From the NCBI RefSeq assembly GCF_019464535.1, contig NZ_CP080507.1:1050001-1082000 (forward strand): 32,000 nt of DNA, given 5' to 3'. Positions 3,390 through 31,882 of this stretch are shown in pieces. The notes under the pieces were generated by a model, which was given only the letters and a program-made list of their open reading frames with translations, had not been told where the DNA came from and searched no databases. The translations under genes and the position numbers were made by a program. Every line of letters starts with the position of its first letter. The stretch's first letter is position 1. This DNA comes from Horticoccus luteus (GTDB lineage: Bacteria > Verrucomicrobiota > Verrucomicrobiia > Opitutales > Opitutaceae).

Positions 3390-3401
3390 CGCGCCGAGGC
3401 G

Positions 3402-5527: not shown

Positions 5528-5552
5528 GGGAGAACCCAAAACGAACGCTCGC

Positions 5553-7951: not shown

Positions 7952-8019
7952 TTCCCGATTGACCCATGCGCGACGGACGGCGTTAACCTCCGCGGCGGCA
8001 TTGCCGCTTTCCCCTCCGA

Positions 8020-9798: not shown

Positions 9799-9906
9799 AC
9801 ACTCCAAGCCGCAGGCGCCGCCCGCCCGCGCGGGTGAGGCGTCCTTCGGAACAGAGCCGACCTCGCGGGGGTTTGGGCGGGGTGGCGGGCTGGCTCGCGG
9901 GTGCGG

Positions 9907-11130: not shown

Positions 11131-11226
11131 GGCGGGCGGAGAAAGGGAGGAACGGATGGAGGGAAACCTTGAAGTGAGCCGGGCGGCTCTGCTTTGTTCA
11201 AGCCCGGCGTTCAAACCCCGCGGCCT
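11131..11226. promoter_or_regulatory. Divergent intergenic region between dapL and panC (promoters inferred)
   Basis: A 96-bp gap lies between divergent start codons. It is called from arrangement only; no motif was recognised. Confidence 0.3.
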
Positions 11227-12072: not shown

Positions 12073-12179
12073 ACAGGCCGCCGGGTGAGGTGCAAACGCC
12101 CCGACATTTTCGTGGTGCTGGTGATAGATTTTGACAGATTTTGGTCGATAATGCGCGAAATGTGACGAGGAATATCGGC

Positions 12180-12953: not shown

Positions 12954-12976
12954 TTTATTCTCTCACTTTTCCCCTC

Positions 12977-15169: not shown

Positions 15170-15203
15170 GGGCGGGCGGGTTGAAGCACAGCGATAGGAG
15201 CCG

Positions 15204-15246
15204 GGACACGGAGGCATTGCCGGACGGCGTTTCTCTGTGTCCTTTG
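15204..15246 (+). terminator. Possible stem-loop terminator after the aldolase/SDR gene
   Basis: GGACACGGAG (15204-15213) pairs with CTCTGTGTCC (15233-15242), including one G:U, around a 19-nt loop. It is followed only by a short TTTG. The loop is long and the T-tract weak. Confidence 0.3.
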
Positions 15247-15253
15247 TGTCACT

Positions 15254-16174: not shown

Positions 16175-16250
16175 ACGGCGGAGCGGAGCGCGTGGCCGTT
16201 GCCGGCTCGACAGGGGATGCCCGGTCGTCTGCGCTCGCGTGGGCAACGCG

Positions 16251-17105: not shown

Positions 17106-17147
17106 ACCTCGCCTTGCCTGGGAAGGCGGCGTGGCTATGCATGGGCC

Positions 17148-19154
17148 ATGCAAATTCCTCGCTGGGCGGTCGCTTCGGCCGCGTTGGTTTGCTCGGTGGC
17201 GGCGTTCGCGGCCATCGACCCGAAGAACTTCGACCCTGCGGTCAAACCGCAGGACGACTTTTACCAGTTCGCCAATGGCGGCTGGCTAAAAAACAATCCG
17301 GTCCCGCCGGCCTACAGCCGTTGGGGGGCGTTTTACGAAGTCAACGAGACCAATCTGGCCGCGTTGCACACGGTGCTTGAGCAGGCGTCCCGCGCGGAAC
17401 ATCCCAACGCGATCGAGAAGCTGGTCGGCGATTTCTACGCGAGCGGCATGGACGAGGCCGCCATCGACGCGGCGGGCCTCCAGCCGTTGCAACCGGAACT
17501 CGATCGCATCGATGCCATCAAGACGGTCGAGGACGTGCAGGCGGAGATCGCGCATCTGCACGGGCGCGCGGTGCGGGTCGGATTCTTTTTCACGTCGGAG
17601 CAGGATCCCAAGGATACGAAGATGATGATCGCGGCGGGCGGCCAGGGCGGGCTCGGGCTGCCGGACCGCGATTACTATTTCCGCGACGACGAGAAGTCGA
17701 AAACGCTGCGGATGGAATACACCGCGCACGTGGCGCGCATGCTGGAGTTGTCGGGTTGGTCGCCGGATGACGCCAAGCAGGGCGCGGACGACGTGCTCCA
17801 ACTGGAGACGGCGCTGGCGGCGGTCTCGAAGAAGCGGGTCGATCTGCGCGACCCGGTGGCGAATTATCACAAAATGTCGGCCGCCGAGCTGGCGAAGCTC
17901 GCGCCGGAGTTCGATTGGAACCGCTACTTCACGGCGCTCGACATCAAGGACGTGGGTCCGATCGACATCGGGCAGCCGGAGTTTTTCACGGGGTTCAGCA
18001 AGCAGATCAAGGACACGCCGGTCGCAGCGTGGAAGACGTATCTGCGCTGGCATTTGCTGCACGCGGCGGCGCCTTACCTGAGCAGCGCGCTGGTGAATGA
18101 GAATTTCCAGTTCTTCGACAAAACCCTCTCAGGCACGCAGGAACTGCGCGAGCGATGGAAGCGGGTGCTGGGGACGATCGACACGTACACCGGCGAGGCG
18201 CTGGGCCAGCTTTACGTGAAGGAGTTTTTTCCGCCGGAGTCGAAAGCGCGGATGTTGCAGCTCGTGGAAAACCTCCGCGCGGCGTTGCGCGATCGCTTGC
18301 ACACGCTCGAATGGATGGACGACGCGACGAAGGCCCGCGCGTTGGACAAGCTCAACGCGTTTGGCGTGAAGATCGGTTATCCCGACAAGTGGATCGACTA
18401 CAGCTCGGTGAAGATAGACCGGAAGGCCTATTGGCAGAACGTGATGAACGCGCGCGCGTTTGATCACCATCGCAGCATCGCGAAAATCGGCCAGCCGGTG
18501 GATCGCACCGAGTGGGACATGACGCCGCCGACGGTGAACGCGTATTACAACCCCACGATGAACGAGATCGTGTTTCCCGCCGGCATCCTGCAGCCGCCGT
18601 TCTTCGACGCGAAGGCGGATGATGCGGTGAACTACGGCGGCATCGGCGCGGTGATCGGCCACGAGATGACGCATGGTTTCGACGACGAAGGCCGGCAGTT
18701 CGCCGCCGACGGCAGTCTGACGGACTGGTGGACGCCAGAGAGCGCGGCGAAATTCAAGGAGCGTTCCGCGGCGATCGTGAAGCAGTTCAACGGCTATGTG
18801 GCGATCGACGATCTGCACGTGAATGGGGCGTTGACGCAGGGCGAGAACATCGCGGACCTCGGCGGATTGAAGATCGCTTATGCCGCGCTGCAAAAAGCGC
18901 TCGGCGGCAAAGAGCCGGCGAAGATCGGCGGCTTCACTGCGGCGCAGCGGTTCTTCCTGAGCTGGGCGACGGTGTGGCATACGAACATCCGCGACCAGCA
19001 ACTGCGTTTGCAGGTGAACACTGATCCGCACTCGCCGGCGCGTTTCCGCGTGAACGGGCCCGTCTCGAATTTGGAGGATTTCTACAAGGCGTTTGATGTG
19101 CCCGCAGGTGCGCCGATGCGCCGCCCGGACAACGAGCGCGTCGAGATCTGGTAA
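17148..19154 (+). CDS. pepO: M13-family zinc metallopeptidase (PepO/endothelin-converting-enzyme-like), secreted or lipid-anchored
   Basis: N-terminal signal peptide (MQIPRWAVASAALVCSVAAFAA), NAYY, the zinc motif VIGHEMTHGFDD and the third ligand motif GENIADLGG. Confidence 0.9.
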   Translation: MQIPRWAVASAALVCSVAAFAAIDPKNFDPAVKPQDDFYQFANGGWLKNNPVPPAYSRWGAFYEVNETNLAALHTVLEQASRAEHPNAIEKLVGDFYASGMDEAAIDAAGLQPLQPELDRIDAIKTVEDVQAEIAHLHGRAVRVGFFFTSEQDPKDTKMMIAAGGQGGLGLPDRDYYFRDDEKSKTLRMEYTAHVARMLELSGWSPDDAKQGADDVLQLETALAAVSKKRVDLRDPVANYHKMSAAELAKLAPEFDWNRYFTALDIKDVGPIDIGQPEFFTGFSKQIKDTPVAAWKTYLRWHLLHAAAPYLSSALVNENFQFFDKTLSGTQELRERWKRVLGTIDTYTGEALGQLYVKEFFPPESKARMLQLVENLRAALRDRLHTLEWMDDATKARALDKLNAFGVKIGYPDKWIDYSSVKIDRKAYWQNVMNARAFDHHRSIAKIGQPVDRTEWDMTPPTVNAYYNPTMNEIVFPAGILQPPFFDAKADDAVNYGGIGAVIGHEMTHGFDDEGRQFAADGSLTDWWTPESAAKFKERSAAIVKQFNGYVAIDDLHVNGALTQGENIADLGGLKIAYAALQKALGGKEPAKIGGFTAAQRFFLSWATVWHTNIRDQQLRLQVNTDPHSPARFRVNGPVSNLEDFYKAFDVPAGAPMRRPDNERVEIW

Positions 19155-19201
19155 CGTAAAACGCACCGCGTGGCCGAAAAATCGGTCGCGAAAAGAGTTA
19201 C

Positions 19202-19233
19202 AAGCGCCGTCCGGGAAAGGACGGCGCTTTTTG
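19202..19233 (+). terminator. Rho-independent terminator downstream of the M13 peptidase gene
   Basis: AAGCGCCGTCC (19202-19212) pairs perfectly with GGACGGCGCTT (19219-19229) around the loop GGGAAA, giving an 11-bp stem whose last two pairs (A19202/A19203 with T19229/T19228) use the first two T of the TTTTT run at 19228-19232. It sits 48 nt after the stop codon. Confidence 0.8.
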
Positions 19234-19429
19234 TCGGTCGCGCGGTGCAGGCGATGAAAGTAGGTCGGCGCGCTCCCACGAGAGGTTGCGGACGGCGGTG
19301 GTTGAGCGGGGGGAGCGGCGGCTGGATGAGATCTGCGGGCGTGGCGTCGGCGTCGCAAAAGGTTTGCGCCCCATGCGGCCTCGGGCAATTTCCGGGCCTT
19401 CCCGTGGAACTCGTTTCCGATAACTTTCC

Positions 19430-19507
19430 GTGAGGCGCGGCACCCTAGCTTTCGTCGGGGCGCTGGTGGTCGTTCTGCTGTTGGGCGGCGTTCGTCTGTA
19501 TCGCATC
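19430..19507 (+). other. N-terminal signal peptide or signal-anchor of the giant protein
   Basis: MRRGTLAFVGALVVVLLLGGVRLYRI has a basic n-region followed by a ~15-residue hydrophobic core. There is no obvious AxA cleavage site or lipobox. Confidence 0.6.
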
Positions 19508-22500
19508 CGGGCGGCGGAAACGGAAAGGGACAAGACACAGGCCGCATTCGCGGGCGCACCGGAAAGCGAGGCGGCGGAACCTCGCTTGGCGACGGCAGGA
19601 GACGAGGTCAAAACGCCGCGAGCGCAGGCGGAGGGGGCGGGTGCCGGCGGGGGCGCGGGGCAACGGATTTCAGCGGCGGAGGAGTTATGGCAGGAGATTC
19701 CGGCGGGGGCGTTGCGCGAGAGTTTGCTGCGGCTGGACGCGGCCGCGCGGCGGCGGGCGTTGGAGAAACTGGCGCGCTTGCACGTGCCCAAGGAAGACTA
19801 TGCAAGCCTGCGGGCGGCGGCGAATGGCGGGTTGTTTTACGCGTGTGTGTTTCCGCGTCCGCCGGACGAGACGGGCACGCGCAACGCGATGGGGCAGGGA
19901 TCGGGCGGGGCGCTCGCGGGGGCGGCGGGAGCGAGCGTGCCCATCGCGACGCCGCCGGTGTTTCACTCGAAGCCGGGATCGGCCAACGTGCTCTACCTCG
20001 ACTTCAACGGGCACACGATCACGGGCACGGCGTGGAATACGAGCAATGGCGCCGCGGCGGTTTACCAGGCGTTGCCCTACGACACGGATGGCGACGCGAC
20101 GTCGTTCAGCGATGCGGAGCAGGCGGTGATCGCGCAAGTGTGGCAGCGCGTGGCGGAGGATTATGCGCCGTTTGACGTGGACGTGACAACGGAGGAGCCG
20201 GCGGTGTTTACCTCCACGACCGGGCGTGCGGTGATCACGAAGAATGTCGATGCGAACGGCGTGGGCATGCCGTCGGGCACGGCGGGCGGCGTGGCGTGGC
20301 TGGATGTCTTTGGCGAGGCGGATTACGCGACGGCGTCATCGCCCGTGCTCATTTACTATAACAATCTGGGCAACACGCGGGCGGATTATATTGCGGAGGC
20401 GACGGCGCACGAGTTTGGGCACAATCTGAGTTTGTCGCACGACGGACAGACCAACGGCAACGAATACTACGGCGGTCATGGCAGCGGCGAAACGTCGTGG
20501 GGGCCGATCATGGGCACGGGCTACAATCGCAACGTCTCGCAGTGGTCGAAGGGCGAATATTATCTGGCGAACAACACCGAGGACGATCTGGCGATCATCT
20601 CCGGGCATCTGGGCTACCGGGCGGACGAAGCCGGCGGCACCGTCGCGACGGCCGCGGTGGCGGCGGTGAACGGCACGGTGGTCAGTGCGAGCGGCATTCT
20701 CAGCAGCGCGAGCGACAGCGACACGTTTGCGGTCTCGACGGGCGCGGGGACGCTCACGTTGAGCGCCTCGCCGTATCGCGCCGCGAGCAACACCTACGGC
20801 GGCGATGCGGACTTGAAACTGGAAGTGCTCAATGCGGCGGGGACGGTGGTCGCCTCCGCCGACCCGAGCGCCACGACGACGGTTTCGCTCAGCTATGCGG
20901 CGGCGGCGGGGACGTATTTTGTGCGGTTGACGCCGTCGAGCACGGGCACGCCGCTGGCATCGACGCCGACGGGTTATACAAGTTATGCGAGCATCGGCCA
21001 CTACACGCTGACGGGGACGATCGTCCCGGCGGCGCCGCAAATATTGGGGCCGCTGACGGCCAGCACGCCCGCGGGGGCGAATTTTAGCTATGCGATTGCA
21101 GCGACCAACTCGCCCACGAGTTATACGGCGGCGGGCCTGCCGACGGGATTAACGTGCGATGCAGGGTCGGGAGTGATCAGCGGCCGGGCGGCGGTAGCGG
21201 GCGTGTTCGCGGTCGCGCTGACGGCGACGAACGGCGTGGGCTCGGCCCAGGCGACGCTTACTCTGACGATCACGGACGCGGCGCCGGCGATCACGAGCCA
21301 GACGGGCGGCCGCACGACGGTGCCCGCAGGCGGGGTGTTGACGTTGCAAGTGGCGGCGATCAGCGCGAACGGCGCCGCGAGTTATCAGTGGAAACACAAT
21401 GGCCTCGCGGTGGCGGGCGGGACAAACAGCACGCTCACGGTTCCCAGCGCGAGCGTCGCGGGCAGCGGTTATTTTCAAGCAGTCGTCACCAACGCGATCG
21501 GCAGCACGACGAGCGCGGCGATGTTTGTGCGCGTGGCTCCGGCGGTGGCGGAGGTGCTGACGTGGGGGAAAAACGATCACGGGCAGTTGAATGAGCCGGT
21601 CGCGCTGGAAGATGCGACGGAGGTGGTCGCGGGCACTTACCACGTGCTGGCGCTCAAGTCCGACGGGACGGTCGCGGCTTGGGGCGACGACAGCAAGGGG
21701 CAGACGGACGTGCCGGCGGATCTGAGCGACGTGGTGGAAGTCGCGGCGGGGAAATATCATTCGCTCGCGTTGCTCGCCAACGGCACGGTGCGCGGCTGGG
21801 GGCTCGGCACATCCGGGCAGACGACCGCGCCGGATGGGTTGTCGGATGTCGTCGAGATTTCGGCGGGCGATTACTATTCGGTGGCGTTGAAAGCGGACGG
21901 GAGCGTGGTGGCATGGGGCGACAACGCTTATGGCCAGCGGAACGTGCCGGGCGGTTTGAGCGGGGTGATCGGCGTCGCGGCGGGCGCAGCGCATGTGCTC
22001 GCGTTGAAAGGCGACGGCACGGTGACGGCGTGGGGTTGGAACGCGAACGGACAGGCGAGCGTGCCGGGCTCGCTCGCGGGCGTCGTGGCCGTGGCGGCGG
22101 GGACGAATCATTCCGTGGCGTTGAACAGCAATGGGACGGTGACGGCGTGGGGTGCGAGCACGTTCACGAGCGGCGCGAGCGCCCTGACGGGTGTGACCGC
22201 GATCGCTGCGGGCAACAATCACTCGCTGGCGTTAAAAGCCGATGGGACGGTGAGCGGTTGGGGCACGGATACGGATGGGCAGATTGCGGGCGGCGCCGGC
22301 GTGACGACGGTGGTGGGCGTGGATGCGGGGTTGTCGTTTTCCGTGGCGTTGCGCGATGCGACGGGGGACGTGGCGCCGACGTTCACCGCGCAGCCGGTTG
22401 ACCGGGCGATTATCTCTGGCGGGAGCGCGACCTTCTCTGTGGCGACGAACGCTTCGACGGCGAGTTATGGGTGGGAGGTCGATTCCGGGAGCGGCTGGGA

Positions 22501-25500
22501 GGTGGTGGCGGAAGGGGCGCCGTTCAGCGGCGCGGCGACGACGACGTTGAGCATAGCGGACGTGACCACAGTGATGAACGGGTGGCAGTTTCGCTGTGTG
22601 GCGACGAACGCGGCGGGCAGCACGACGTCGTCGGTCGCGACACTGACCGTCGCGAAGGCAGCGCAGACGATCGCGTTCGAAGCGGTGAGCGCGAAGACGT
22701 TTGGCGATGCGGCGTTTGCGGTGAAGGCGACGGCGACGAGCGGGTTGCCGGTGGATGTGAGCGTCGTGAGCGGACCGGCGACGATGGCGAACGGGGTGGT
22801 GACGTTGACGGGCGCGGGCACGGTGACATTGCGCGCGAGCCAGGCAGGCGACGCGCGTTACGCGGCGGCGACGGATGTGAACGTGAGTTTCACGGTGGAA
22901 AAGGCGGTGCCGCTGCTGACTTGGGCCGCGCCGGCGGGGATCGTTTACGGCACGGCTTTGTCGGAAACGCAGCTCAACGCGACGGCGAGCGTGCCGGGCG
23001 TTTTCGTCTATTCGCCGGCGGCCGGAACAGTCTTGGACGCGGGGAGCGGTGCGGTGTTGAGCGTAACGTTTACGCCGGCGGAAACGGAAAATTATACGCG
23101 CGCGACGGCGACGACGACGATCGCGGTGGCGGCGGCGACGCAGACGATTTCTTACGCACCGGTCGGTGCGAAGACATTTGGCGATGCGCCGTTCATTGTG
23201 GCGGCGAGTGCGAGCAGCGGCCTGCCGGTGACGATCGTGGTCGCGGCGGGGCCGGCGAGCGTGGCGAATGGCGCGGTGACGTTGAGCGGGGCGGGCGCGG
23301 TGACGTTGGTCTTACGTCAGGCAGGCAATGCCAACTTTGCCGCGGCGCCGGACGTGCCGGTGATGTTTAGCGTGGCGAAAGACCAGCCTCTGCTCGCGTG
23401 GGAGGCGCCGGCGGCGATTGCGTATGGCACGGTGCTTTCGAGCGCGCAGCTCAATGCGACGGCGGATGTGGCGGGCACGTTTGTTTACGATCCGCCCGCG
23501 GGCACGGTGTTGGCGGCCGGCGAGGCGCAGGTGTTGAGCGTGACGTTCACGCCGGACGATGCGGCGGATTTTACGAAGGCGACGGCGACGACGACGATTA
23601 CCGTGGCGCCGGCGGCGCAGACGATCGCGGTCGACCCGATCACGGCGAAGACGTTTGGCGATGCGGCGTTTGCGGTGACTGCGACGGCGACGAGCGGGTT
23701 GCCGGTGGATGTGAGCGTCGTGAGCGGACCGGCGACGATGGCGAACGGAGTGGTAACGTTGACGGGCGCGGGCGCGGTGTCGTTGCGCGCGAGTCAGGCG
23801 GGCGATCCGAATTTCAAGGCGGCGGATGACGTGGTCGTGAGCTTCACGGTGGCGAAGGCGGGGCCTGTGCTGACGTGGAGCGCGCCGGCGGCGATTGCGT
23901 ATGGCACGGTGTTTTCGAGCGCGCAGCTCAACGCGACGGCGGATGTGGCGGGCACGTTTGTTTACGATCCGCCCGCGGGCACGGTGTTGGCGGCCGGCGA
24001 GGCGCAGGTGTTGAGCGTGACGTTCACACCGGACGATGCGGCGAATTTTACGGAGGCGACGGCGACTACGACGATTACCGTGGCGCCGGCGGCGCAGACA
24101 ATCGCGATCGACCCGATCACGGCGAAGACGTTTGGCGATGCGGCGTTTGCGGTGACTGCGACGGCGACGAGCGGGTTGCCGGTGAGCGTGAGTGTCGTGA
24201 GCGGACCAGCGACGATGGCGAACGGAGTGGTGACGTTGACGGGCGCGGGCGCGGTGTCGTTGCGCGCGAGTCAGGTGGGCGATGCGAATTTCACGGCGGC
24301 GGATGACGTGGTCGTGAGCTTCACGGTGGCGAAGGCGGGGCCGGTGCTGATGTGGAGCGCGCCGGCGGCGATTGCGTATGGCACGGCGTTGTCCACGGCG
24401 CAGCTCAACGCGACGGCGGATGTGGCGGGCACGTTTGTTTACGATCCGCCCGCGGGCACGGTGTTGGCGGCCGGCGAGGCACAAGTGTTGCGCGCGACGT
24501 TCACGCCGGACGATGCGGCGAATTTTGCGGAGGCGACGGCGACGACGACGATTACCGTGGCGCCGGCGGCGCAGACGATCGAGGTTGAGCCGATCGCGGC
24601 GAAGACGTTTGGCGATGCGGCGTTTGCGGTGACTGCGACGGCGACGAGCGGGTTGCCGGTGAGCGTGAGTGTCGTGAGCGGACCGGCGACGATGGCGAAC
24701 GGAGTGGTGACGTTGACGGGCGCGGGCACGGTGACGTTGCGCGCGAGCCAGGCAGGCGACGCGCGTTACGTGGCGGCGACGGATGTGGACGTGAGCTTCA
24801 CGGTGGCGAAGGCGGTGCCGGTGCTGACGTGGAGCGCGCCGGCGGCGATTGCGTATGGCGAAGCGTTGTCCGCGACGCAGCTCAACGCGACGGCGAGCGT
24901 GCCGGGTGCGTTTGCTTACGTTCCGGCGCTCGGGACGACACTTGGGGCAGGAGACGGGCAGGTGTTGAGCGTGACGTTCACACCGGACGATGCGGCGGAT
25001 TTTACGGAGGCGACGGCGACGACGACGATTACCGTGGCGCCGGCGGCGCAGACAATCGCGGTCGACCCGATCACGGCGAAGACGTTTGGCGATGCGGCGT
25101 TTGCGGTGACTGCGACGGCGACGAGCGGGTTGCCGGTAAGCGTGAGTGTCGTGAGCGGACCGGCGACGATGGCGAACGGAGTGGTAACGTTGACGGGCGC
25201 GGGCGCGGTGTCGTTGCGCGCGAGTCAGGCGGGCGATGCGCGTTACGTGGCGGCGACGGATGTGGACGTGAGCTTCACGGTGGCGAAGGCGGTGCCGGTG
25301 CTGACGTGGAGCGCGCCGGCGGCGATTGCGTATGGCGAAGCGTTGTCCGCGACGCAGCTCAACGCGACGGCGAGCGTGCCGGGTGCGTTTGCTTACGTTC
25401 CGGCGCTCGGGACGACACTTGGGGCAGGAGACGGGCAGGTGTTGAGCGTGACGTTCACACCGGACGATGCGGCGGATTTTACGGAGGCGACGGCGACGAC

Positions 25501-28500
25501 GACGATTACCGTGGCGCCGGCGGCGCAGACAATCGCGATCGACCCGATCACGGCGAAGACGTTTGGCGATGCGGCGTTTGCGGTGACTGCGACGGCGACG
25601 AGCGGGTTGCCGGTGGATGTGAGTGTCGTGAGCGGACCGGCGACGATGGCGAACGGAGTGGTGACGTTGACGGGCGCGGGCACGGTGACGTTGCGCGCGA
25701 GTCAGGGGGGCGATGCGAATTTCACGGCGGCGGAAGACGTGGTCGTGAGCTTCACGGTGGCGAAGGCGGTGCCGGTGCTGACGTGGAGCGCGCCGGCGGC
25801 GATTGCTTACGGCACGGCGTTGTCCTCGACGCAGCTCAACGCGACGGCGAGCGTGCCGGGGACGTTTGTTTACGATCCGGCGGCGGGCACAAAACTTGAG
25901 GCGGGGGACGCACAAGTGTTGCGCGCGATGTTTACGCCGGAAGACAGCGCGAATTACGTCTCGGCTTCGCTCACGCGTGAGATCGACGTGAAGCTCATCG
26001 CGACGCAAATCATCACACAGCCGGTTTCCGTGGTCGTGGTGGAAGGGGAGAATGCGATTTTCCGGGTCGTGGCCACGGGCGCGCCCGAGCCAACGTTTCA
26101 ATGGCAGAAAGATGGAACGCCTCTCACCGGCGCGACATCGGCGACGTTGGTGCTCGCAGCGGTGAGCGCAGATGATGCGGGGGCATTTACGGTAACGGTG
26201 GCGAATTCTGCACGCACGGTGGTGAGTCAGGAGGCAACGTTGACGGTGAATCCGATCGCGCCGGTTATTTCGGCCACGGATTTGTCGGCGGTGCAGGGCC
26301 AATCATTTGACTTCCAAATCAACGCCAACACGACGTCCGCGACGTATGGCGCGAGCGGGTTGCCGGCGGGGCTGACGGTGAACACCGCGACGGGCGCGAT
26401 CAGCGGCACACCGACGACGACGGGCAGCTTCACGGTGACGTTGAGCGCCTCCAACGCGACCAGCAGCGACAGCAAACAGATCACGCTGACGGTCCAGCCA
26501 CCGGCGCCGGTCATCACGAGCCCCGGCGCAACCGGCGGCCGCGTGGGCAGCGCGTTCACCTACACGATTGTGGCGTCCAACGGCGCCACCACTTACAGCG
26601 CGCCGTATCTGCCGGACGGGCTCACACTCAATGCGGCGACGGGCGAGATCACGGGTACGCCGACGACCGCGGGGACTTACCTCGTCGTCATCACCGCGAG
26701 CAACGTGACCGGCTCCGCGACGACGCAGCTCCAGATCACCGTGGAATCCGCCGCCAACGCGCCGCTCTACGCGGGCGCCACGTCGTTCAGCGCGGTGCAA
26801 AACACCGGCTTCGCACTGGTGCCGGCGTTCACGAACAGCCCCACCGGTTTCGCGCTCGCGAAGCTCGCCGACGGCACCGATTCGGTGCTGCCGACGGGCC
26901 TCACGTTCAACGCCACCACCGGCGTGCTCACGGGCACGCCGACGCAGGTGGGCGTCTTCACGTTTGCGCTCCGCGCCACCAACGCCGGCGGCAGTTCGAC
27001 GGTCACGTTGACGCTCACGGTCAACCCCGCGCCGGCGGCGCCGAAGATCACCAGCGCGTCGAGCGCGATGGCGACGGTCGGCGTGGCGTTCAGCTTCCAA
27101 CTCACCGCGAGCGCCACGCCCGCCGCGACGAGCTTCACGCTCGTGTCCGGCACGCTGCCCGCGGGCCTCACGCTCAACCCCGCGAGCGGCCTCATCTCCG
27201 GCACGCCGGGCGCACCGGCGCTCACGACGGTGTCGGTCGCGGCGACCAACACCGTGGGCACGGGCGCCGCGGCGCAACTGGTGTTCTCCGTGTCGCCGTC
27301 ACCGACGGCACCGGCGATCACGTCGGCGCTCGTGGCCACGGGCCAGGTCGGCACCGCGCTCAGTTATCAACTCACGGCGTCGAACACGCCCACGTCGTTC
27401 ACCCTTGTGTCCGGCACGCTGCCGGCGGGTCTCGCGTTTGACGGGGCGACAGGCGCGATCTCGGGCACGCCCACGACCGTGGGCCAGCGCCGCGTTTACT
27501 TCGCCGCGAGCAACGCCTCCGGCCGCGGCCTCGCGCTCGAAGTGCTCTTCAGCATCACCGCCGCGCCGACCGTGCCGGTGGTGACGAGCAACCCGACCGC
27601 GGAAGGGCAGGTCGGCCAGGCGTTCCTCTATATTGTCACGGGCACGAACACGCCGATCAGCTACGGCGTGACGGGCACGCTGCCCGCCGGCCTCGTGGCC
27701 GAGGAAGGCGTGATCTACGGTGTGCCCGCGCAATCGGGCACGGCGATCCTCACGCTGACCGCGACCAACGCCGACGGCACCGGCGCGGCGAAGACGCTGA
27801 CGATCACGATCCGCCCCGCGCCTGCGACGCCGGTCATCACGAGCGCGCTCAACGCCTCGGGCCGCGTGGGCACGGCGTTCGCGTATCAAGCGACCGCGAC
27901 GGAGAACGCGACCTCGTTCGTCGCGCTCGGGCTGCCCTCGGGCCTCACGATGAACAGCGCCGGCCAGATCAGCGGCACGCCGACCGCGGCGGGCACGTTC
28001 GGCGTGACGCTCCGCGCCACGAACGCCGCGGGCGCGGGCACGCCAGCGATCCTCTCGCTCGCGATCAACGCCGCCGCGCAAGCGCCGAAGCTCACGAGCG
28101 CCGCCGCGCAGGCCGGCAAAGTGCGCGTGCCCTTCACGTATCAAGCGAGCGCCGCGCCCGGTCCGATCACGAGCTACGGGTTGACCGGCACGCTGCCGCT
28201 CGGCCTCGCGTTCAACACCTCCACCGGCCTGCTCTCCGGCACGCCCGCCGAGTCGGGGGTGTTTGTCGTGACGCTGACCGCGACGGCCGACGCCGGCACG
28301 AGCCTCGGCCAGGACGTGGCGTTGTTCATCTCGCCCGCCGACGATGTGCCGGTGATCAACAGCTCCACGCGCGCCGACGGCACGGTGGACGCTGCGTTCA
28401 GCTTCACCGTCACCGCGACGAATCTGCCGGCCGCGCCGTTCCCGCCGTATGCGACGATCGACGCGATCGGGTTGCCCGACGGCCTCGCGATCAATCCCTC

Positions 28501-29161
28501 GACGGGCTTGATCCAAGGCACGCCGACGAGCGCGGGGACGTTCACCGTTTACCTCGCCGCGACGAATCTCAACGGCACCGGGCCGGTGCGCACGTTGACC
28601 CTCGTGATCAAACCCTCGCCGTCGGCGCCGATCATCAACAGTTCGCCGCAAGCCGCCGCGCAAGCGGGCGTGGCGTTCAGTTACCAGATCGGCGCGCTCA
28701 ACGGCGCGACGGCCTACGAAGTGATCGGGGCGCCCGCGTGGCTCGGCGTCAACGCGACGACCGGCGCGCTCACGGGCACGCCGACGCTGCCGGGCACGGT
28801 GACGGTGCAACTGCTCGCGAGCAACGCGACCGGCACCTCGAGCCCGCAGACGCTCACGCTCACGATCGCGCCGGCGGCGAACACGCCGGTGATCACCAGC
28901 GGCCAGGCGGCCACGGGTGCGATCGGCGCGGCGTTCAGTTACCAGATTGCCGCGACGAATACGCCGACGAGTTACATCGCGACGGGTCTGCCGGAAGGTC
29001 TGGTCTTCGACGGTGCGACCGGCCAGATCACGGGCACGCCGCAAGCCTCGGGCGAGTTCCGCGTGACGCTCACAGCCGTCAACGCCCAAGGCCCGGGCGC
29101 CGGCGCCGCTCTCGTTCTCACCATTGTTTCCAGCGTGCAGTTCATCGACGCGGGCGGATGA
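19430..29161 (+). CDS. Giant (3,243 aa) multidomain surface/secreted protein: signal-anchor, reprolysin-like metzincin protease, PPC domain, Ig/He_PIG modules, 7-bladed RCC1 propeller, 7x159-aa tandem repeats, 11x He_PIG repeats
   Basis: One uninterrupted ORF starting at GTG 19430. Domain calls come from sequence motifs and are listed as the separate features below. Confidence 0.9.
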   Translation: MRRGTLAFVGALVVVLLLGGVRLYRIRAAETERDKTQAAFAGAPESEAAEPRLATAGDEVKTPRAQAEGAGAGGGAGQRISAAEELWQEIPAGALRESLLRLDAAARRRALEKLARLHVPKEDYASLRAAANGGLFYACVFPRPPDETGTRNAMGQGSGGALAGAAGASVPIATPPVFHSKPGSANVLYLDFNGHTITGTAWNTSNGAAAVYQALPYDTDGDATSFSDAEQAVIAQVWQRVAEDYAPFDVDVTTEEPAVFTSTTGRAVITKNVDANGVGMPSGTAGGVAWLDVFGEADYATASSPVLIYYNNLGNTRADYIAEATAHEFGHNLSLSHDGQTNGNEYYGGHGSGETSWGPIMGTGYNRNVSQWSKGEYYLANNTEDDLAIISGHLGYRADEAGGTVATAAVAAVNGTVVSASGILSSASDSDTFAVSTGAGTLTLSASPYRAASNTYGGDADLKLEVLNAAGTVVASADPSATTTVSLSYAAAAGTYFVRLTPSSTGTPLASTPTGYTSYASIGHYTLTGTIVPAAPQILGPLTASTPAGANFSYAIAATNSPTSYTAAGLPTGLTCDAGSGVISGRAAVAGVFAVALTATNGVGSAQATLTLTITDAAPAITSQTGGRTTVPAGGVLTLQVAAISANGAASYQWKHNGLAVAGGTNSTLTVPSASVAGSGYFQAVVTNAIGSTTSAAMFVRVAPAVAEVLTWGKNDHGQLNEPVALEDATEVVAGTYHVLALKSDGTVAAWGDDSKGQTDVPADLSDVVEVAAGKYHSLALLANGTVRGWGLGTSGQTTAPDGLSDVVEISAGDYYSVALKADGSVVAWGDNAYGQRNVPGGLSGVIGVAAGAAHVLALKGDGTVTAWGWNANGQASVPGSLAGVVAVAAGTNHSVALNSNGTVTAWGASTFTSGASALTGVTAIAAGNNHSLALKADGTVSGWGTDTDGQIAGGAGVTTVVGVDAGLSFSVALRDATGDVAPTFTAQPVDRAIISGGSATFSVATNASTASYGWEVDSGSGWEVVAEGAPFSGAATTTLSIADVTTVMNGWQFRCVATNAAGSTTSSVATLTVAKAAQTIAFEAVSAKTFGDAAFAVKATATSGLPVDVSVVSGPATMANGVVTLTGAGTVTLRASQAGDARYAAATDVNVSFTVEKAVPLLTWAAPAGIVYGTALSETQLNATASVPGVFVYSPAAGTVLDAGSGAVLSVTFTPAETENYTRATATTTIAVAAATQTISYAPVGAKTFGDAPFIVAASASSGLPVTIVVAAGPASVANGAVTLSGAGAVTLVLRQAGNANFAAAPDVPVMFSVAKDQPLLAWEAPAAIAYGTVLSSAQLNATADVAGTFVYDPPAGTVLAAGEAQVLSVTFTPDDAADFTKATATTTITVAPAAQTIAVDPITAKTFGDAAFAVTATATSGLPVDVSVVSGPATMANGVVTLTGAGAVSLRASQAGDPNFKAADDVVVSFTVAKAGPVLTWSAPAAIAYGTVFSSAQLNATADVAGTFVYDPPAGTVLAAGEAQVLSVTFTPDDAANFTEATATTTITVAPAAQTIAIDPITAKTFGDAAFAVTATATSGLPVSVSVVSGPATMANGVVTLTGAGAVSLRASQVGDANFTAADDVVVSFTVAKAGPVLMWSAPAAIAYGTALSTAQLNATADVAGTFVYDPPAGTVLAAGEAQVLRATFTPDDAANFAEATATTTITVAPAAQTIEVEPIAAKTFGDAAFAVTATATSGLPVSVSVVSGPATMANGVVTLTGAGTVTLRASQAGDARYVAATDVDVSFTVAKAVPVLTWSAPAAIAYGEALSATQLNATASVPGAFAYVPALGTTLGAGDGQVLSVTFTPDDAADFTEATATTTITVAPAAQTIAVDPITAKTFGDAAFAVTATATSGLPVSVSVVSGPATMANGVVTLTGAGAVSLRASQAGDARYVAATDVDVSFTVAKAVPVLTWSAPAAIAYGEALSATQLNATASVPGAFAYVPALGTTLGAGDGQVLSVTFTPDDAADFTEATATTTITVAPAAQTIAIDPITAKTFGDAAFAVTATATSGLPVDVSVVSGPATMANGVVTLTGAGTVTLRASQGGDANFTAAEDVVVSFTVAKAVPVLTWSAPAAIAYGTALSSTQLNATASVPGTFVYDPAAGTKLEAGDAQVLRAMFTPEDSANYVSASLTREIDVKLIATQIITQPVSVVVVEGENAIFRVVATGAPEPTFQWQKDGTPLTGATSATLVLAAVSADDAGAFTVTVANSARTVVSQEATLTVNPIAPVISATDLSAVQGQSFDFQINANTTSATYGASGLPAGLTVNTATGAISGTPTTTGSFTVTLSASNATSSDSKQITLTVQPPAPVITSPGATGGRVGSAFTYTIVASNGATTYSAPYLPDGLTLNAATGEITGTPTTAGTYLVVITASNVTGSATTQLQITVESAANAPLYAGATSFSAVQNTGFALVPAFTNSPTGFALAKLADGTDSVLPTGLTFNATTGVLTGTPTQVGVFTFALRATNAGGSSTVTLTLTVNPAPAAPKITSASSAMATVGVAFSFQLTASATPAATSFTLVSGTLPAGLTLNPASGLISGTPGAPALTTVSVAATNTVGTGAAAQLVFSVSPSPTAPAITSALVATGQVGTALSYQLTASNTPTSFTLVSGTLPAGLAFDGATGAISGTPTTVGQRRVYFAASNASGRGLALEVLFSITAAPTVPVVTSNPTAEGQVGQAFLYIVTGTNTPISYGVTGTLPAGLVAEEGVIYGVPAQSGTAILTLTATNADGTGAAKTLTITIRPAPATPVITSALNASGRVGTAFAYQATATENATSFVALGLPSGLTMNSAGQISGTPTAAGTFGVTLRATNAAGAGTPAILSLAINAAAQAPKLTSAAAQAGKVRVPFTYQASAAPGPITSYGLTGTLPLGLAFNTSTGLLSGTPAESGVFVVTLTATADAGTSLGQDVALFISPADDVPVINSSTRADGTVDAAFSFTVTATNLPAAPFPPYATIDAIGLPDGLAINPSTGLIQGTPTSAGTFTVYLAATNLNGTGPVRTLTLVIKPSPSAPIINSSPQAAAQAGVAFSYQIGALNGATAYEVIGAPAWLGVNATTGALTGTPTLPGTVTVQLLASNATGTSSPQTLTLTIAPAANTPVITSGQAATGAIGAAFSYQIAATNTPTSYIATGLPEGLVFDGATGQITGTPQASGEFRVTLTAVNAQGPGAGAALVLTIVSSVQFIDAGG
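19951..20620 (+). other. Reprolysin/ADAM-like (M12B-type) metzincin catalytic domain
   Basis: The zinc motif HEFGHNLSLSHD lies at 20408-20443 (aa 327-338). Flanking blocks VLYLDFNGHTITGTAWN, VAEDYAPFDVDVTT and SWGPIMGTGY...WSKGEYY are typical of bacterial Reprolysin_4-like proteins. Confidence 0.75.
20621..21025 (+). other. Bacterial pre-peptidase C-terminal (PPC)-like beta-sandwich domain
   Basis: The sequence SDSDTFAVSTGAGTLTLSASPY...GDADLKLEVLNAAGTVVASAD...GTYFVRLTP...IGHYTLTGTI follows the PPC pattern (DxDxF..., D.dL.l.d..G, G.Y.v.V). Confidence 0.6.
21026..21275 (+). other. He_PIG (putative Ig, dystroglycan/cadherin-like) domain, isolated copy
   Basis: PAGANFSYAIAATNSPTSYTAAGLPTGLTCDAGSGVISGRAAVAGVFAVALTATN matches the Y-x-A...GLPxGL...tGxisGtP..xGxf core. 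Confidence 0.6.
21276..21550 (+). other. Ig-like (I-set-type) domain
   Basis: GGVLTLQVAAISANGAASYQWKHNGLAVAGGTNSTLTVPSASVAGSGYFQAVVTNAIGSTTS shows the classic YQW-x-NG ... L.i......G.Y.c.v.N pattern. Confidence 0.55.
21551..22357 (+). repeat. Seven RCC1-like repeats (a complete beta-propeller), about 38 aa per blade
   Basis: The unit [V/I]AAG..H[S/V]LAL...GTV.[A/G]WG....GQ...P occurs seven times: WGKNDHGQLN, AAWGDDSKGQTD, RGWGLGTSGQTT, VAWGDNAYGQRN, TAWGWNANGQAS, TAWGASTFTSGAS, SGWGTDTDGQIA. Confidence 0.8.
22358..22657 (+). other. Ig-like domain
   Basis: FTAQPVDRAIISGGSATFSVATNASTASYGWEVD...LSIADVTTVMNGWQFRCVATNAAGSTTS. Confidence 0.5.
22658..25996 (+). repeat. Seven in-frame tandem repeats of exactly 477 bp (159 aa); each unit consists of two ~80-aa beta-sandwich modules
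   Basis: Units start at 22658, 23135, 23612, 24089, 24566, 25043 and 25520. Module A reads AAQTIa.dPi.AKTFGDAAFAVTATATSGLPV.VSVVSGPATMANGVVTLTGAG.V.LRASQAGD. Module B reads P.LTWsAPAAIAYGtaLS..QLNATA.V.GtFvYdP.aGTvL.AG..QVLsVTFTPdDaanf, resembling the YG-containing MBG (YGX-type) domain. Positions 24761-25060 are 100% identical to 25238-25537. Confidence 0.92.
25997..26251 (+). other. Ig-like (I-set-type) domain
   Basis: ITQPVSVVVVEGENAIFRVVATGAPEPTFQWQKDGTPLTGATSATLVLAAVSADDAGAFTVTVANSA. Confidence 0.6.
26252..29158 (+). repeat. Array of eleven diverged He_PIG (putative Ig) domains, about 88 aa each, extending to the C-terminus
   Basis: The recurrent pattern is P.APvITS....G.vG.aFsYqi.AtN.PTSy...GLPaGL.fn..TG.isGTPt..G.f.vtl.AtN..G.g...L.ltI. 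The copies are diverged at both DNA and protein level, unlike the 477-bp units. Confidence 0.75.
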
Positions 29162-29432
29162 AGGTGAAATTCCTCCGGAGCGTCGATTTTGTGAAATGGG
29201 CAAGCAGGGTGACGCGTGGGGCGCACGCTGACGCGCGTGGGCTTGATGTTAACGACGAGCTTCAAACCACCGCGCGGCGGAGCGCACGGTCCACCTGCGC
29301 GGCGTCAGGGCGATGCGCGGACGAGCAGCGGAGGTGGTGCGGACGTGGCGGAGTGAAATGCGCGACGGGAAAGGCGCGGCGCAGAAATGCGATTGCGGCG
29401 CAGTGGGAGGGTGACTTGATGCGGGTTTCCCC

Positions 29433-30863
29433 ATGATTGAACCGCCGGGCCGGATTCGAGAATTTGTGGCTTCGTTCACTGACACGCTGCGGCTGCCGCG
29501 GGCGTTTTGGTTCGTGATCGGCGCGTTCGTGGTCGATTCGATGGCTTACTTCGGCGTGCTGACGCTGATGTCGAGCTACCTGTCGAGCGAGCTCGGCTGG
29601 GGCGACGTGGCGGCGGGAATCATGGTGAGTCTTTTCACCATGAGCATGACGTTGTTCATGCTGGGCTTGGGGAGTTTTGCCGAAGGCTTCGGCTTGCGGC
29701 GGGCGATTCTTGCGGCGCTGGCGTTGTGCACAGTGGGGCGGCTGGTTTATAGCGGAATGGGGATGGTGCACGGCGGCGTGGCCGTGACGGCGGCGGTGAT
29801 CGCGGCGATTTTCGTGACGGCGGTGGGCGAGGCGATTTTGCAGCCCGTGTGCTACTCGGGCGTGAAACAATACACGGACGAGAAGACGAGCGTGATGGGT
29901 TACGCGTTGATCTATGCGATCATGAACGCGCTGATCGTGGCGGCGGGCACATTGTCGGCGTGGATCCGGCCGGCGGTGCAGGACGTGAAGGATGGCCACG
30001 CGACGACGGGCGGATTCGTGGGCTGGCTGGCGGGCGTGACGCCGAGCGGCATCGACGCGGTGAACTGGGTGTTCACAGGCGTGACGGCGCTGACTTTTGT
30101 GGGGTTCTTCGTCGTGTTCACGCGGAAGGCGGAGGCGGAGAAGTTGCGGCCGGACCCCGCGGAGGAGCAACGTCTCGGGGCGACGAAGCCGCGGCTCGCG
30201 CGGTTGAAGGAGTATTTCACGGAGGGACCGTTTCGGAATCCGAGATTCCTGTTTTTCATTTTCATGCTGCTGCCGGTGCGGACGTTGTTCGCGCACCAGT
30301 GGCTGACGTTTCCGCAATATATTCTGCGGGCCTACGACAAGGACGTGGCGGATCACATGGAGTGGCTGGTGAACTGGATCAACCCGGGTGTGATCTTCAT
30401 CGGCGTGCCGCTGACGGCGGCGCTGACGAAGCGGATCAACGTTTATACGATGATGATCGTCGGTTCGCTGGTGAGCGCGCTGCCGACGTTTCTGCTGGTG
30501 GGCGGTCCGGATTTGACGCGGTTGATCACGTATTTCGTGGTGTTCTCCATCGGCGAAGCGCTGTGGTCGGCGCGATTTTTGGAATACGCGTCGGAACTCG
30601 CGCCGCCGGGACGCGTGGCGCAATACATGGGCCTCGCGAACATCCCGTGGCTGCTGGCGAAGGGCACGACGGGCTTTTACTCCGGCTACATGCTCTCGCG
30701 CTATTGTGCGGAAGGCGTGCCGCCGGCGCAGCAGCACACGGGCACGATGTTTTTGATCTACGGCTGCATCGCGATGTTGTCGCCGATCGGACTTTTCGCC
30801 GCGCGGAAGTGGGTGATGGCGGGATTGCACACGGCGCGGGCACCCGCGCGCGCGGCAAATTGA
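29433..30863 (+). CDS. MFS transporter (weak resemblance to the POT/peptide-transporter branch)
   Basis: 476 aa with about 12-14 hydrophobic segments. The N-terminal FWFVIGAFVVDSMAYFGVLTLMSSYLSSELGW resembles the ERFxYYG region of POT carriers, but without the conserved ExxER. Confidence 0.75.
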   Translation: MIEPPGRIREFVASFTDTLRLPRAFWFVIGAFVVDSMAYFGVLTLMSSYLSSELGWGDVAAGIMVSLFTMSMTLFMLGLGSFAEGFGLRRAILAALALCTVGRLVYSGMGMVHGGVAVTAAVIAAIFVTAVGEAILQPVCYSGVKQYTDEKTSVMGYALIYAIMNALIVAAGTLSAWIRPAVQDVKDGHATTGGFVGWLAGVTPSGIDAVNWVFTGVTALTFVGFFVVFTRKAEAEKLRPDPAEEQRLGATKPRLARLKEYFTEGPFRNPRFLFFIFMLLPVRTLFAHQWLTFPQYILRAYDKDVADHMEWLVNWINPGVIFIGVPLTAALTKRINVYTMMIVGSLVSALPTFLLVGGPDLTRLITYFVVFSIGEALWSARFLEYASELAPPGRVAQYMGLANIPWLLAKGTTGFYSGYMLSRYCAEGVPPAQQHTGTMFLIYGCIAMLSPIGLFAARKWVMAGLHTARAPARAAN

Positions 30864-30970
30864 AGTCGGGTTGACGCGCGCTTGGGCCGGGAACCAAGCG
30901 GTCCGGGGCGGTTCTAGCACGACGAAGCACCGTTGGCGCAAGGACCTTGCGCAAGCGGTTTTCGTGCGCC

Positions 30971-31882
30971 ATGCAGCCAAACCTTTCGATCATCGTTCCT
31001 CACAAAAACGACCCGGTGCGACTCGAGTCGTGCCTGGCCGGCCTGTCAGCGCAGGTGGAAAGCGGCGATGAGATCATCGTCGTCGATAATGGCTCGGGCG
31101 ACCATGCGCGGGCCGCGGCGGAGGGCGCGTGTTGGCGGATGGGTGCGCGATTTTTTTCGTGCGATCGCGGTGGCTCTTATGCGGCGCGGAACGTCGGGAT
31201 AGAACAGGCGAAGAACGACGTGTTCGTGTTCACGGACGCGGATTGCCGGCCGGCGGCGGAGTTTCTGCCGAGTTATCGGGCGTGGTTCGCGACGAAGCGC
31301 GCGCCGGCGATCGCGGCGGGTCCCGTGGCACTTGTGCCGAGGCGCGGCGGGCGGTTCAACGCGTGGGAGTGCATCGATCGCGTTTACGGCTTTCCGCAGG
31401 CGGAGATGGTGCAGCGCTCCGGCACCGCGATGACGGCCAATCTGGCGGTCTCGCGTGCGGCGGTCGAGCAATGGGGCGCGTTTGACGCGCGGCTGTTCTC
31501 CGGGGGCGACGTGGAGTTTTCGCGGCGGGTATCCAGCCGTGTGCCCGGCGGGATGGGCTGGGTGCCGGGCGCGACGATTTTGCATCCGACGCGTGCCACG
31601 CGCGGGGAGCACCTGCGCCGGATGATGCGCACCCACGAGGGGTTGGAGCGACTGGCACGGCAGGCAGGTGCAGTCGGCGCCACGAAAGGCACGGTGTGGC
31701 GGGCGGCGATCGGGCGCCCGAGCGCCCGCTGGAAGCAGATTTTGCACCTCGCGGACGCTAGTTTGCCGGCGAAGGCGTGGGCGCTCGTGTGCCTCGCGGA
31801 TTTGCGTCTGGCGAGGATGCGCTACAAAGCGCGTTTACGGCGCGAACTTGATCTGGGTCGGCTGGCGCGGGAGGTGAACTGA
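30971..31882 (+). CDS. Family 2 glycosyltransferase (GT-A fold)
   Basis: LSIIVPHKNDPVRLESCLAGLSAQ...IIVVDNGSGD...YAARNVGIEQAKNDVFVFTDADC contains the DxD (TDAD). ATG at 30971 is preferred over the track's TTG at 30947. Confidence 0.8.
   Translation: MQPNLSIIVPHKNDPVRLESCLAGLSAQVESGDEIIVVDNGSGDHARAAAEGACWRMGARFFSCDRGGSYAARNVGIEQAKNDVFVFTDADCRPAAEFLPSYRAWFATKRAPAIAAGPVALVPRRGGRFNAWECIDRVYGFPQAEMVQRSGTAMTANLAVSRAAVEQWGAFDARLFSGGDVEFSRRVSSRVPGGMGWVPGATILHPTRATRGEHLRRMMRTHEGLERLARQAGAVGATKGTVWRAAIGRPSARWKQILHLADASLPAKAWALVCLADLRLARMRYKARLRRELDLGRLAREVN

Follow-up and report, generated by a model that had tools for sequence, protein, structure and literature searches.

Verrucomicrobiota are abundant in soil and in the rhizosphere and have been poorly studied; their giant surface proteins are nearly all annotated just 'Ig domain-containing' (Ig, immunoglobulin). 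The giant adhesins of type I secretion systems (T1SS), which carry repeats-in-toxin (RTX) sequences and include LapA, SiiE and MpIBP, are attached at the N-terminus and have a long Ig-like stalk, with their ligand-binding modules distal to the cell. Among the zinc proteases of the metzincin clan, cysteine and aspartate switches alternate within families, as in karilysin versus the mammalian matrix metalloproteinases (MMPs) and in myroilysin versus astacin (PMC6949598). BLIP-II is a secreted high-affinity protein binder from soil bacteria (PMC9218822). Here we describe a gene at 19430..29161 (+ strand) in a stretch of 32,000 nucleotides from Horticoccus luteus (the window). It encodes a protein of 3,243 amino acids (aa) with a metzincin protease head, a propeller of the BLIP-II type and a long beta-sandwich arm. 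The protein appears, as judged from sequence, to be a secreted or surface protease-adhesin with multiple domains, the core of which comes from an uncharacterised metzincin family. Its order of domains is that of an uncharacterised yet recurrent, modular family and not that of a unique chimera.

The gene is complete. It is read directly as a single uninterrupted open reading frame (ORF) of 3,243 codons plus stop, with a GTG start at 19430 and the stop at 29159-29161. Its GC content at third codon positions (GC3) is 0.85, the same level as in other genuine genes here; GC content in the window is 61-72%. With Met as residue 1, the translation is 100% identical across 3,243 aa to QYM79845.1/WP_220164228.1 (P0123). 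The source of this record is Horticoccus luteus (Opitutaceae, Opitutales, Verrucomicrobiota), assembled as one 4,320,198-bp contig; its annotation reads 'putative Ig domain-containing protein' and nothing more. The giant ORF is genuine and coding, and the uninterrupted frame of 3,243 aa given in a preliminary description of the window is borne out by the ORF call, GC3 and the identity to WP_220164228.1. The domain order proposed in that description held along the whole chain. Ala, Thr, Gly and Val together make up 53% of residues, and there are only three cysteines in the whole protein (C139, C576 and C1056).

Protease head and prosegment

The metzincin catalytic domain (aa 168-400; 19931..20629) is delimited by matches to Reprolysin_3/5, AlphaFold2 (AF2) modelling and Foldseek. 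It contains the zinc-binding motif HEFGHNLSLSHD (aa 327-338; 20408..20443) and a Met-turn, M361 within SWGPIMG (20510..20512). Residue conservation was counted in an alignment of 54 family sequences. H327, E328, H331, H337, D338 and M361 are identical in all 54. The family consensus for the motif is HExGHNLGLSHDG. The Horticoccus protein has the extended HEXXHXXGXXH motif of metzincins, the Gly position aside; this position (334) is Gly in 46 of the 54 sequences, Ser in six, including the Horticoccus protein, and Asp in two. The Met-turn and the catalytic fold characteristic of metzincins are both present, as is the Asp directly after the third zinc His which marks the M12B family (D338). An invariant YYxGHG sequence (Y346, Y347, G349, H350) is found in aa 339-360 (20444-20509), after the third zinc His and ahead of the Met-turn. 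We know of no counterpart to this insert among solved metzincins; the region is modelled at low confidence when the prosegment and the PPC domain are absent.

Pfam places the domain only marginally. Reprolysin_3 reaches 23.9 bits (cut-off 22.4) in a scan restricted to aa 1-557, and 21.6 bits in the whole protein. Reprolysin_4 (15.6 bits, cut-off 22) and Reprolysin_5 (22.6-25.0 bits, cut-off 27), the models expected in the preliminary description, were both matched below their cut-offs; of the reprolysin models, Reprolysin_3 passes, with the N-terminus alone. A search of Protein Data Bank (PDB) sequences with the family profile gave a match confined to the active-site helix of snake-venom adamalysins, in aligned stretches about 16-56 profile positions long. 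Structure models were more informative about the fold. The AF2 model of the head (aa 85-560) has a mean predicted local distance difference test score (pLDDT) of 86.9 and a predicted TM-score (pTM) of 0.88. Foldseek results with this model were swamped by PPC matches, and the catalytic domain was remodelled alone (aa 165-402; pLDDT 84.3, pTM 0.85; low confidence in aa 339-356). The top 50 PDB matches of the catalytic domain are all metzincins (serralysins, ADAMs, fragilysin and MMPs), with probabilities of 0.82-1.00 and TM-scores of only 0.3-0.45. Serralysins come out ahead of ADAMs, with no preference for adamalysins. The adamalysin disulfides are absent from the catalytic domain, since aa 168-400 contain no Cys. 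Adamalysin (M12B) was considered as the structurally closest family and rejected on these grounds: serralysins rank higher, no TM-score exceeds 0.45 and the disulfides are missing. We place the head in the metzincin clan, apparently in a family of its own. The earlier label 'reprolysin-like Zn protease' thus holds for the metzincin part, through the motif, the Met-turn and the fold; the reprolysin likeness is one of motif only.

Ser in place of Gly in the zinc motif, the marginal Pfam scores and the low confidence at aa 339-356 of the catalytic-only model would all fit a catalytically dead or vestigial protease domain within a structural or binding scaffold. This reading is very unlikely: the protein retains every zinc ligand, the catalytic Glu, the Met-turn and the Asp that follows the third His, none of which varies across the 54 sequences, and the same Ser variant is found in the six members noted above, which are otherwise conserved. 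Identity to giant relatives is 64-73% in the catalytic domain, 47-68% in PPC, 47-53% in the propeller and 34-56% in the Ig domains. The catalytic domain is therefore the best-conserved region of the protein, which argues for a working enzyme.

The catalytic domain is followed by a beta-sandwich of the bacterial pre-peptidase C-terminal (PPC) type (aa 405-530; 20642..21019). Scanning of this segment by itself gives 25.9 bits for PF04151, exactly the cut-off. Foldseek matches it to the collagen-binding domains of ColG/ColH and to the Bacillus anthracis PPC domain with a probability of 1.0 and target TM-scores of 0.55-0.75. The PPC domain of the preliminary description can be retained on both counts.

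Ahead of the catalytic domain, an Ala/Gly/Glu-rich low-complexity linker (aa 22-87; 19493..19690), the sequence of which is not conserved across the family, leads into a conserved prosegment of about 55 aa (aa 88-142, IPAGALRESLLRL...GGLFYACVF; 19691..19855). The prosegment was recognised from the family alignment. In the AF2 model (pLDDT 87-96) it forms three helices and two short strands, one of the strands at aa 135-139. The linker which follows it (aa 143-167; 19856..19930) appears to be flexible: pLDDT falls to 53-57 and the sequence is variable across the alignment. It is the candidate region for activation cleavage.

The putative switch residue is Cys139, which is the sole Cys in aa 1-575. 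In the family alignment, column 139 is Cys in 27 of 54 sequences, Asp in 25 and Glu in one; all are residue types that can serve as zinc ligands. Those giant relatives in which the prosegment could be read all have Cys. The whole-head model also matches the pro-meprin and pro-astacin zymogens in Foldseek. Modelled with the prosegment and PPC present, aa 335-384 gain about 20 pLDDT points, an indirect hint of a latency switch from modelling. On good grounds in the alignment and the models, we infer that the head resembles a Cys/Asp-switch zymogen.

Propeller, beta-sandwich arm and family

Between PPC and the propeller there is one He_PIG domain (aa 535-613; 21032..21268; Pfam and copy alignment) and one Ig-like domain (aa 618-700; 21281..21529). 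The latter scores slightly below the cut-offs of Ig_2 (26.7 bits) and Ig_3 (26.8 bits) and is 41-56% identical to the same domain of relatives. The propeller itself occupies aa 701-976 (21530..22357). Pfam finds six RCC1_2 stretches (176.9 bits) and also matches WD40_RLD, and seven 'AG..H/Y/F..AL' blades of about 38-40 aa can be read in the sequence. Among PDB sequences it is matched best by BLIP-II (1jtd_B, E=2e-48), with two alignments which overlap and jointly cover nearly the whole 273-residue chain; this is far ahead of UVR8 (5e-16) and eukaryotic RCC1 (5e-8). The complete seven-blade propeller claimed earlier is confirmed by RCC1_2, the blade motifs and the BLIP-II match. The label 'RCC1' holds for the fold; the type is specifically that of BLIP-II and not of eukaryotic RCC1. 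A second Ig-like domain follows (aa 982-1072; 22373..22645), with an I-set score of 21.5 bits, under the cut-off, and is conserved in relatives.

The likeness to BLIP-II supports an extracytoplasmic protein-binding role for the propeller, as far as sequence can indicate one, and is silent on the ligand. It also raises the possibility of a targeted degrader for competition: the propeller would tightly bind one specific foreign protein, for instance a secreted hydrolase such as a beta-lactamase or a competitor's cell-wall enzyme, and hand it to the protease on the same chain. Those relatives that carry as many as about 13 propellers would be polyvalent traps. The propeller is far closer to BLIP-II than to the other solved RCC1-like proteins, BLIP-II is itself a secreted high-affinity binder of soil bacteria (PMC9218822), and propeller type (RCC1 or NHL) and number vary among relatives, as expected of specificity modules. 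However, propellers of the RCC1/BLIP-II type are very common (118,124 matches in the search described below, mostly without a protease). Since they are so common in bacteria, homology to BLIP-II does not imply a similar ligand, and we consider a dedicated degrader improbable.

The arm beyond the second Ig-like domain begins with a tandem array (aa 1073-2185; 22646..25984) of seven units of exactly 477 nt, or 159 aa, delimited by repeat and identity analysis. Each unit consists of a module A of about 84 aa and a module B of about 75 aa. The seven two-module repeats of the preliminary description are thus confirmed as seven exact A+B units. They are 63-97% identical in protein and 68-97% in DNA; all seven differ and the frame is kept.

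Tandem 477-nt repeats of up to 97% identity are the one feature that might point to an error of assembly, whether a chimeric ORF or a wrong number of repeats. Such an error is extremely unlikely. The ORF lies on a single 4.32-Mb contig, none of the seven units is a copy of another and the reading frame is preserved exactly; in an independent relative of 3,241 aa (L001), collinearity extends from the prosegment up to and including the first module A.

The identification of these repeats as MBG-like in the preliminary description did not survive. No MBG model in Pfam matches the repeat modules at E<=1. An hmmsearch with a hidden Markov model (HMM) of module B finds nothing in the L001 protein (L001p), which carries ten MBG_2 stretches, and hhalign of the repeat modules with the genuine MBG_2 copies of L001p gives a probability below 1%. 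MBG/MBG_2 identity is ruled out by all three. Module A has eight copies in L001p; module B is without counterpart there. The repeat modules have only weak HYDIN/CFAP65/VesB-like Ig matches, and the homologues retrieved with one A-B unit were all short fragments, annotated as Ig of the HYDIN/CFAP65/ASH type or as Big_3_5. Modules A and B are therefore best described, from their sequences, as unclassified Ig-like modules.

The array is followed by a third Ig-like domain (I-set/Ig_3; aa 2193-2273; 26006..26248), which is the best-scoring stretch for both models (I-set 60.4 bits; Ig_3 77 bits summed over two stretches of the protein). The remainder of the arm is formed by eleven He_PIG domains (aa 2275-3232; 26252..29125; period 83-93 aa), again placed by Pfam and copy alignment. 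The model for He_PIG, a cadherin-like domain of the dystroglycan type (PF05345), matches twelve stretches in all, with 310.8 bits and E=1.8e-94. The eleven C-terminal copies are only 31-56% identical to each other, and so they are old repeats. One He_PIG domain after PPC, eleven at the C-terminus and three Ig-like domains had been claimed, and Pfam He_PIG, Ig_3 and I-set support these counts. With one PPC, twelve He_PIG, three Ig and fourteen repeat modules, the tally is 30 beta-sandwich modules, in agreement with the earlier estimate of about 30.

The head is widespread. With aa 151-560 as query, 2,190 proteins were retrieved; the best are 60-61% identical, and most are 500-715 aa long. Nearly all are from Verrucomicrobiota and their PVC-group relatives (Kiritimatiellota), and the few which have a name are called 'M12 family metallo-peptidase'. 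The protease head appears from these sequences to represent a common, uncharacterised family. For the fusion of head and propeller, a full HMMER search with aa 151-1075 was run against 1.84 billion representatives, and the top 150 were scanned locally with HMMs. The search gave 118,124 matches, mostly RCC1/Ig proteins. In at least 23 distinct clusters (50% identity) from these top 150, the N-terminal prosegment-catalytic-PPC head is followed by one to about 13 RCC1 propellers; examples are P0121 (6,732 aa), P0122 (6,538 aa) and P0125 (3,710 aa). How widespread the fusion is had been left as a check in the preliminary description; these clusters show it to be recurrent, and all are uncharacterised. 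Literature searches for reprolysin plus RCC1 and for RCC1 plus He_PIG in bacteria found nothing relevant. The combination had been thought undescribed: no characterised protein with it was found, and it is not unique.

Full-length examples of head+RCC1 genes sit in Opitutia/Opitutaceae metagenome-assembled genomes (MAGs), and the best related locus is 60% identical. L001 (P0164; 3,241 aa) continues with MBG_2/MBG_3 after its collinear part. L002 (1,968 aa) has a tail of Cadherin_5/Big_9, and L005 (1,597 aa) has two propellers. In two Nibricoccus MAGs (L006, 9497-13900; L007, 9419-13879), the same head is fused to five Ig domains and an NHL propeller which replaces RCC1. The L006 protein also has a He_PIG domain, and a GH28 gene lies downstream of it. 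In L003 (Opitutia MAG JACPIT010000013), an ORF of >3,130 aa (1-9393, + strand) lies directly upstream of the P0121 gene on the same strand; the two are giant genes in tandem.

At least four types of C-terminal domain occur in the family; the Horticoccus protein has none. A domain of the form '...ETWRA.YP....FFRLxVT' is found in the giant proteins P0121, P0122, P0142, P0196, P0207 and P0264 and in the short proteins P0005, P0013 and P0027. It may be a sorting or secretion domain. The other types are 'YTAQVSGV..GVGLVEI.LMP', FG-GAP-like and EF-hand/dockerin-like. Short and giant members are about equally similar to the Horticoccus head (57-61% identity), which indicates that arms have been gained, lost and swapped repeatedly. 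These comparisons show the head (prosegment, catalytic domain and PPC) as a conserved core, to which the arm is an interchangeable add-on.

It should be considered whether the protein is mainly a fibrillar adhesin or surface fibre, in which the stalk and propeller attach to surfaces, plant roots or other cells and the protease serves only for self-processing or for release of the fibre. Stalk-type beta-sandwich repeats account for about 2,700 of the 3,243 residues. The A/B units have been recently amplified, with up to 97% DNA identity, and variation of stalk length by repeat amplification is typical of adhesins. The varied terminal domains of the relatives, such as the FG-GAP-like and EF-hand/dockerin-like types, are also expected of surface or adhesive proteins. 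However, it is the protease head, and not the arm, that the family conserves, most members (500-715 aa) have no stalk, and Pfam/NCBIfam scans of the Horticoccus protein found no LPXTG, RTX/T1SS, autotransporter or PEP-CTERM signal. A primarily adhesive role is possible and, on this evidence, rather unlikely, although it is a more serious contender than any of the other alternatives.

Export and proposed action

The N-terminus begins with a hydrophobic segment (aa 4-21, GTLAFVGALVVVLLLGGV; 19439..19492). It is preceded by RR and followed by RLYRIR, and there is no AXA site; it looks like an anchor rather than a cleaved signal peptide, in line with the hydrophobic anchor of the preliminary description. 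In each of the 16 full-length giant relatives examined, an uncharged hydrophobic stretch of 13-22 aa (median 17) is followed by W/R/K/H/Q, with no AXA. Short Opitutia members show the same anchor-like N-terminus, and many short members from other Verrucomicrobiota lineages end this segment in an AXA|Q signal-peptidase site. Since giant and short Opitutia members share it, the anchor-like N-terminus is a feature of the clade and not a correlate of gigantism. From its sequence the segment is probably a signal-anchor.

The C-terminus is a short tail, VSSVQFIDAGG, followed by the stop (29126..29161), without a recognisable sorting domain. No Pfam/NCBIfam match was found to T1SS-RTX, type IX secretion system (T9SS) C-terminal domain, PEP-CTERM, LPXTG or autotransporter signals. 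A T9SS C-terminal domain was considered and rejected: the lone Por_Secre_tail match (21.6 bits, cut-off 23) falls inside PPC, at aa 456-501.

The reading we favour, in which we place about even confidence, is that of a Sec-exported, membrane-tethered metzincin zymogen with its zinc masked by Cys139 and with an arm that recruits substrates or surfaces; it draws on the sequence and the head models. The uncleaved signal-anchor would direct Sec export and hold the zymogen at the cytoplasmic membrane. Cys139 of the prosegment would cap the catalytic zinc as a cysteine switch, and the Asp found in about half of the family would act as an aspartate switch. Activation could take place by displacement of the prosegment or by cutting within the flexible aa 143-167 linker. 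Because the anchor and the enzyme are separated by the prosegment, activation by proteolysis would at the same time set the mature protein free; a cut in aa 143-167 would detach about 3,080 aa from the anchor. The tethered protease of the preliminary description is supported in part, by the anchor-like N-terminus, with the qualification that a permanent tether is not the sole reading and would be lost on prosegment cleavage. The propeller, as a protein-binding module, and the beta-sandwich array would bring substrates or surfaces to the protease. The likely purpose would be to scavenge protein, or to attack one particular foreign protein or a target on a cell surface in soil.

Several observations weigh against this favoured reading. 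The Pfam protease matches are marginal, the Gly of the zinc motif is Ser in the Horticoccus protein, one of six such members among the 54, and TM-scores to all solved metzincin families are modest (0.35-0.45). Three Arg directly after the hydrophobic run are unusual for a signal peptide or a type II anchor. The Opitutaceae host is presumably diderm, in which case an inner-membrane anchor leaves a chain of >100 nm in the periplasm, barring an extra export step. Pfam/NCBIfam scans found no sorting signal at the C-terminus, and passage of the 330-kDa chain across the outer membrane is not explained by a signal-anchor. Lastly, 27 of the 30 beta-sandwich modules are of stalk type and fit an adhesin equally well.

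A bolder version would see in the Opitutales proteins that join head and propeller a new class of 'receptor-guided' proteases acting outside the cytoplasm: tethered Cys/Asp-switch zymogens which are guided in cis by swappable propellers of the BLIP-II or NHL type. The propellers would capture foreign proteins such as the secreted enzymes of competitors, and on activation the zinc would be unmasked and the enzyme released from the cell. This generalisation is speculative, and we rate its chances as low.

Were the zymogen reading correct, it would define a new family of metzincins with a single switch position, occupied by Cys in some members and by Asp in others. It would also provide a physiological context for BLIP-II-like propellers, the natural role of which is unclear so far. 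With a cultured strain and a complete genome, Horticoccus luteus would be a tractable model for how diderm Verrucomicrobiota export and use proteins of >300 kDa. Of what is new here, the Cys/Asp-switch column and the interchangeability of the propeller arms lend themselves best to testing.

Genomic setting and comparison with known systems

The flanking genes, as identified by domain scan, are those of ordinary metabolism and transport. Upstream are genes for PtsI, an aminotransferase, PanC, an aldolase-short-chain dehydrogenase fusion, PanE, a TIM-barrel isomerase and an M13 peptidase; downstream are a major facilitator superfamily transporter and a GT2 glycosyltransferase. The fusion (12611-15169, + strand) is a protein of 852 aa with a class II aldolase domain and a short-chain dehydrogenase domain. 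The M13 gene (17148-19154, + strand), directly upstream of the giant gene, encodes a neprilysin/PepO-like zinc peptidase of 668 aa. A hairpin with a T-run, AGCGCCGTCC-GGGAAA-GGACGGCGCT-TTTTG, can be read directly 3' of it (19201..19236, + strand). It has a clean, GC-rich stem of 10 bp and a TTTTT tail, and was not listed by the terminator scan. The hairpin ends the upstream gene, and the giant gene is thus its own transcription unit. A promoter scan was uninformative, with matches at the level of shuffled sequence.

The neighbourhood was compared with 80 related loci. No neighbour from the window adjoins any head+RCC1 homologue among them. The sole matches are PanE in L006, which encodes the NHL-arm protein, and PanE plus a weak aminotransferase match in L057, which is a head-only locus. 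On this comparison the giant gene occupies a non-conserved genomic position, and its description as an accessory-looking locus is supported to that extent. A functional tie to the adjoining M13 peptidase was considered and rejected; the M13 gene has its own terminator and the adjacency is not kept in the 80 related loci. A mobile-element or island setting was likewise rejected. There is no tRNA gene anywhere in the window, and no integrase-like domain in the flanking genes scanned (8020-19154 and 29433-31882).

Two long antisense ORFs lie within the giant gene, at 23312-26302 (- strand; 996 aa) and 27299-29203 (- strand; 634 aa). They lack the coding GC3 pattern and are by-products of high GC content and repeats. 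Between 26001 and 29000, the GC skew changes from about +0.23 to between -0.02 and -0.07 and GC content rises to 0.71-0.72. The shift overlaps most of the eleven-copy He_PIG array (26252-29125); it probably reflects a Thr/Pro/Ala-rich codon composition and not foreign origin.

Several described systems resemble parts of the protein. The T1SS RTX adhesins differ in that the Horticoccus protein has a Sec-type N-terminus and a protease head and is without an RTX or C-terminal T1SS signal in the Pfam/NCBIfam scans. The preliminary description considered the order of modules unusual, the reverse of that in fibrillar adhesins. N-terminal attachment with an outward stalk is, however, not unusual in Gram-negative giant adhesins. 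The clostridial collagenases ColG and ColH (M9 with PKD and PPC-type domains) also have a secreted zinc protease followed by beta-sandwich spacer or binding domains. However, they are M9 gluzincins rather than metzincins, and they have no propeller, no anchor and far fewer modules. With adamalysin/reprolysin (M12B) and other metzincins, the Horticoccus head has in common HEXXHXX(G)XXHD, the Met-turn, the fold and an N-terminal prosegment. Sequence likeness to adamalysins is limited to the active-site helix; the Horticoccus head lacks their disulfides and has the motif Ser and the invariant YYxGHG insert.

BLIP-II of Streptomyces exfoliatus (1jtd_B, 3qhy_B) and the Horticoccus propeller are both seven-bladed, with blades of about 40 aa, both extracytoplasmic and both from soil bacteria. 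BLIP-II is free-standing, at about 28 kDa, whereas the Horticoccus propeller is a single module within a chain of 3,243 aa.

Closest of all are proteins of Verrucomicrobiota. The 'M12 family metallo-peptidase'+PPC family (for example Nibricoccus aquaticus CMV30_09570, P0013) has the same prosegment, catalytic domain and PPC. Identity is 53-67% in the catalytic domain and 42-58% from prosegment to PPC, and the invariant residues are common to both. A typical member has 500-715 aa and one C-terminal domain (InlB B-repeat, Ig or 'FYRL'); the Horticoccus protein has in addition a propeller and beta-sandwich arm of about 2,700 aa. The giant Opitutia homologues (L001/P0164, L002, L005, P0121 and P0122) have the same order of prosegment, catalytic domain, PPC, (He_PIG), Ig, RCC1 and Ig, with up to 73% identity in the catalytic domain, and module A is common to L001. 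The tails differ. L001 alternates MBG_2/MBG_3 with module A, and P0121 and P0122 have up to about 13 propellers; among the giant homologues compared, module B and the eleven-copy He_PIG array are found only in the Horticoccus protein.

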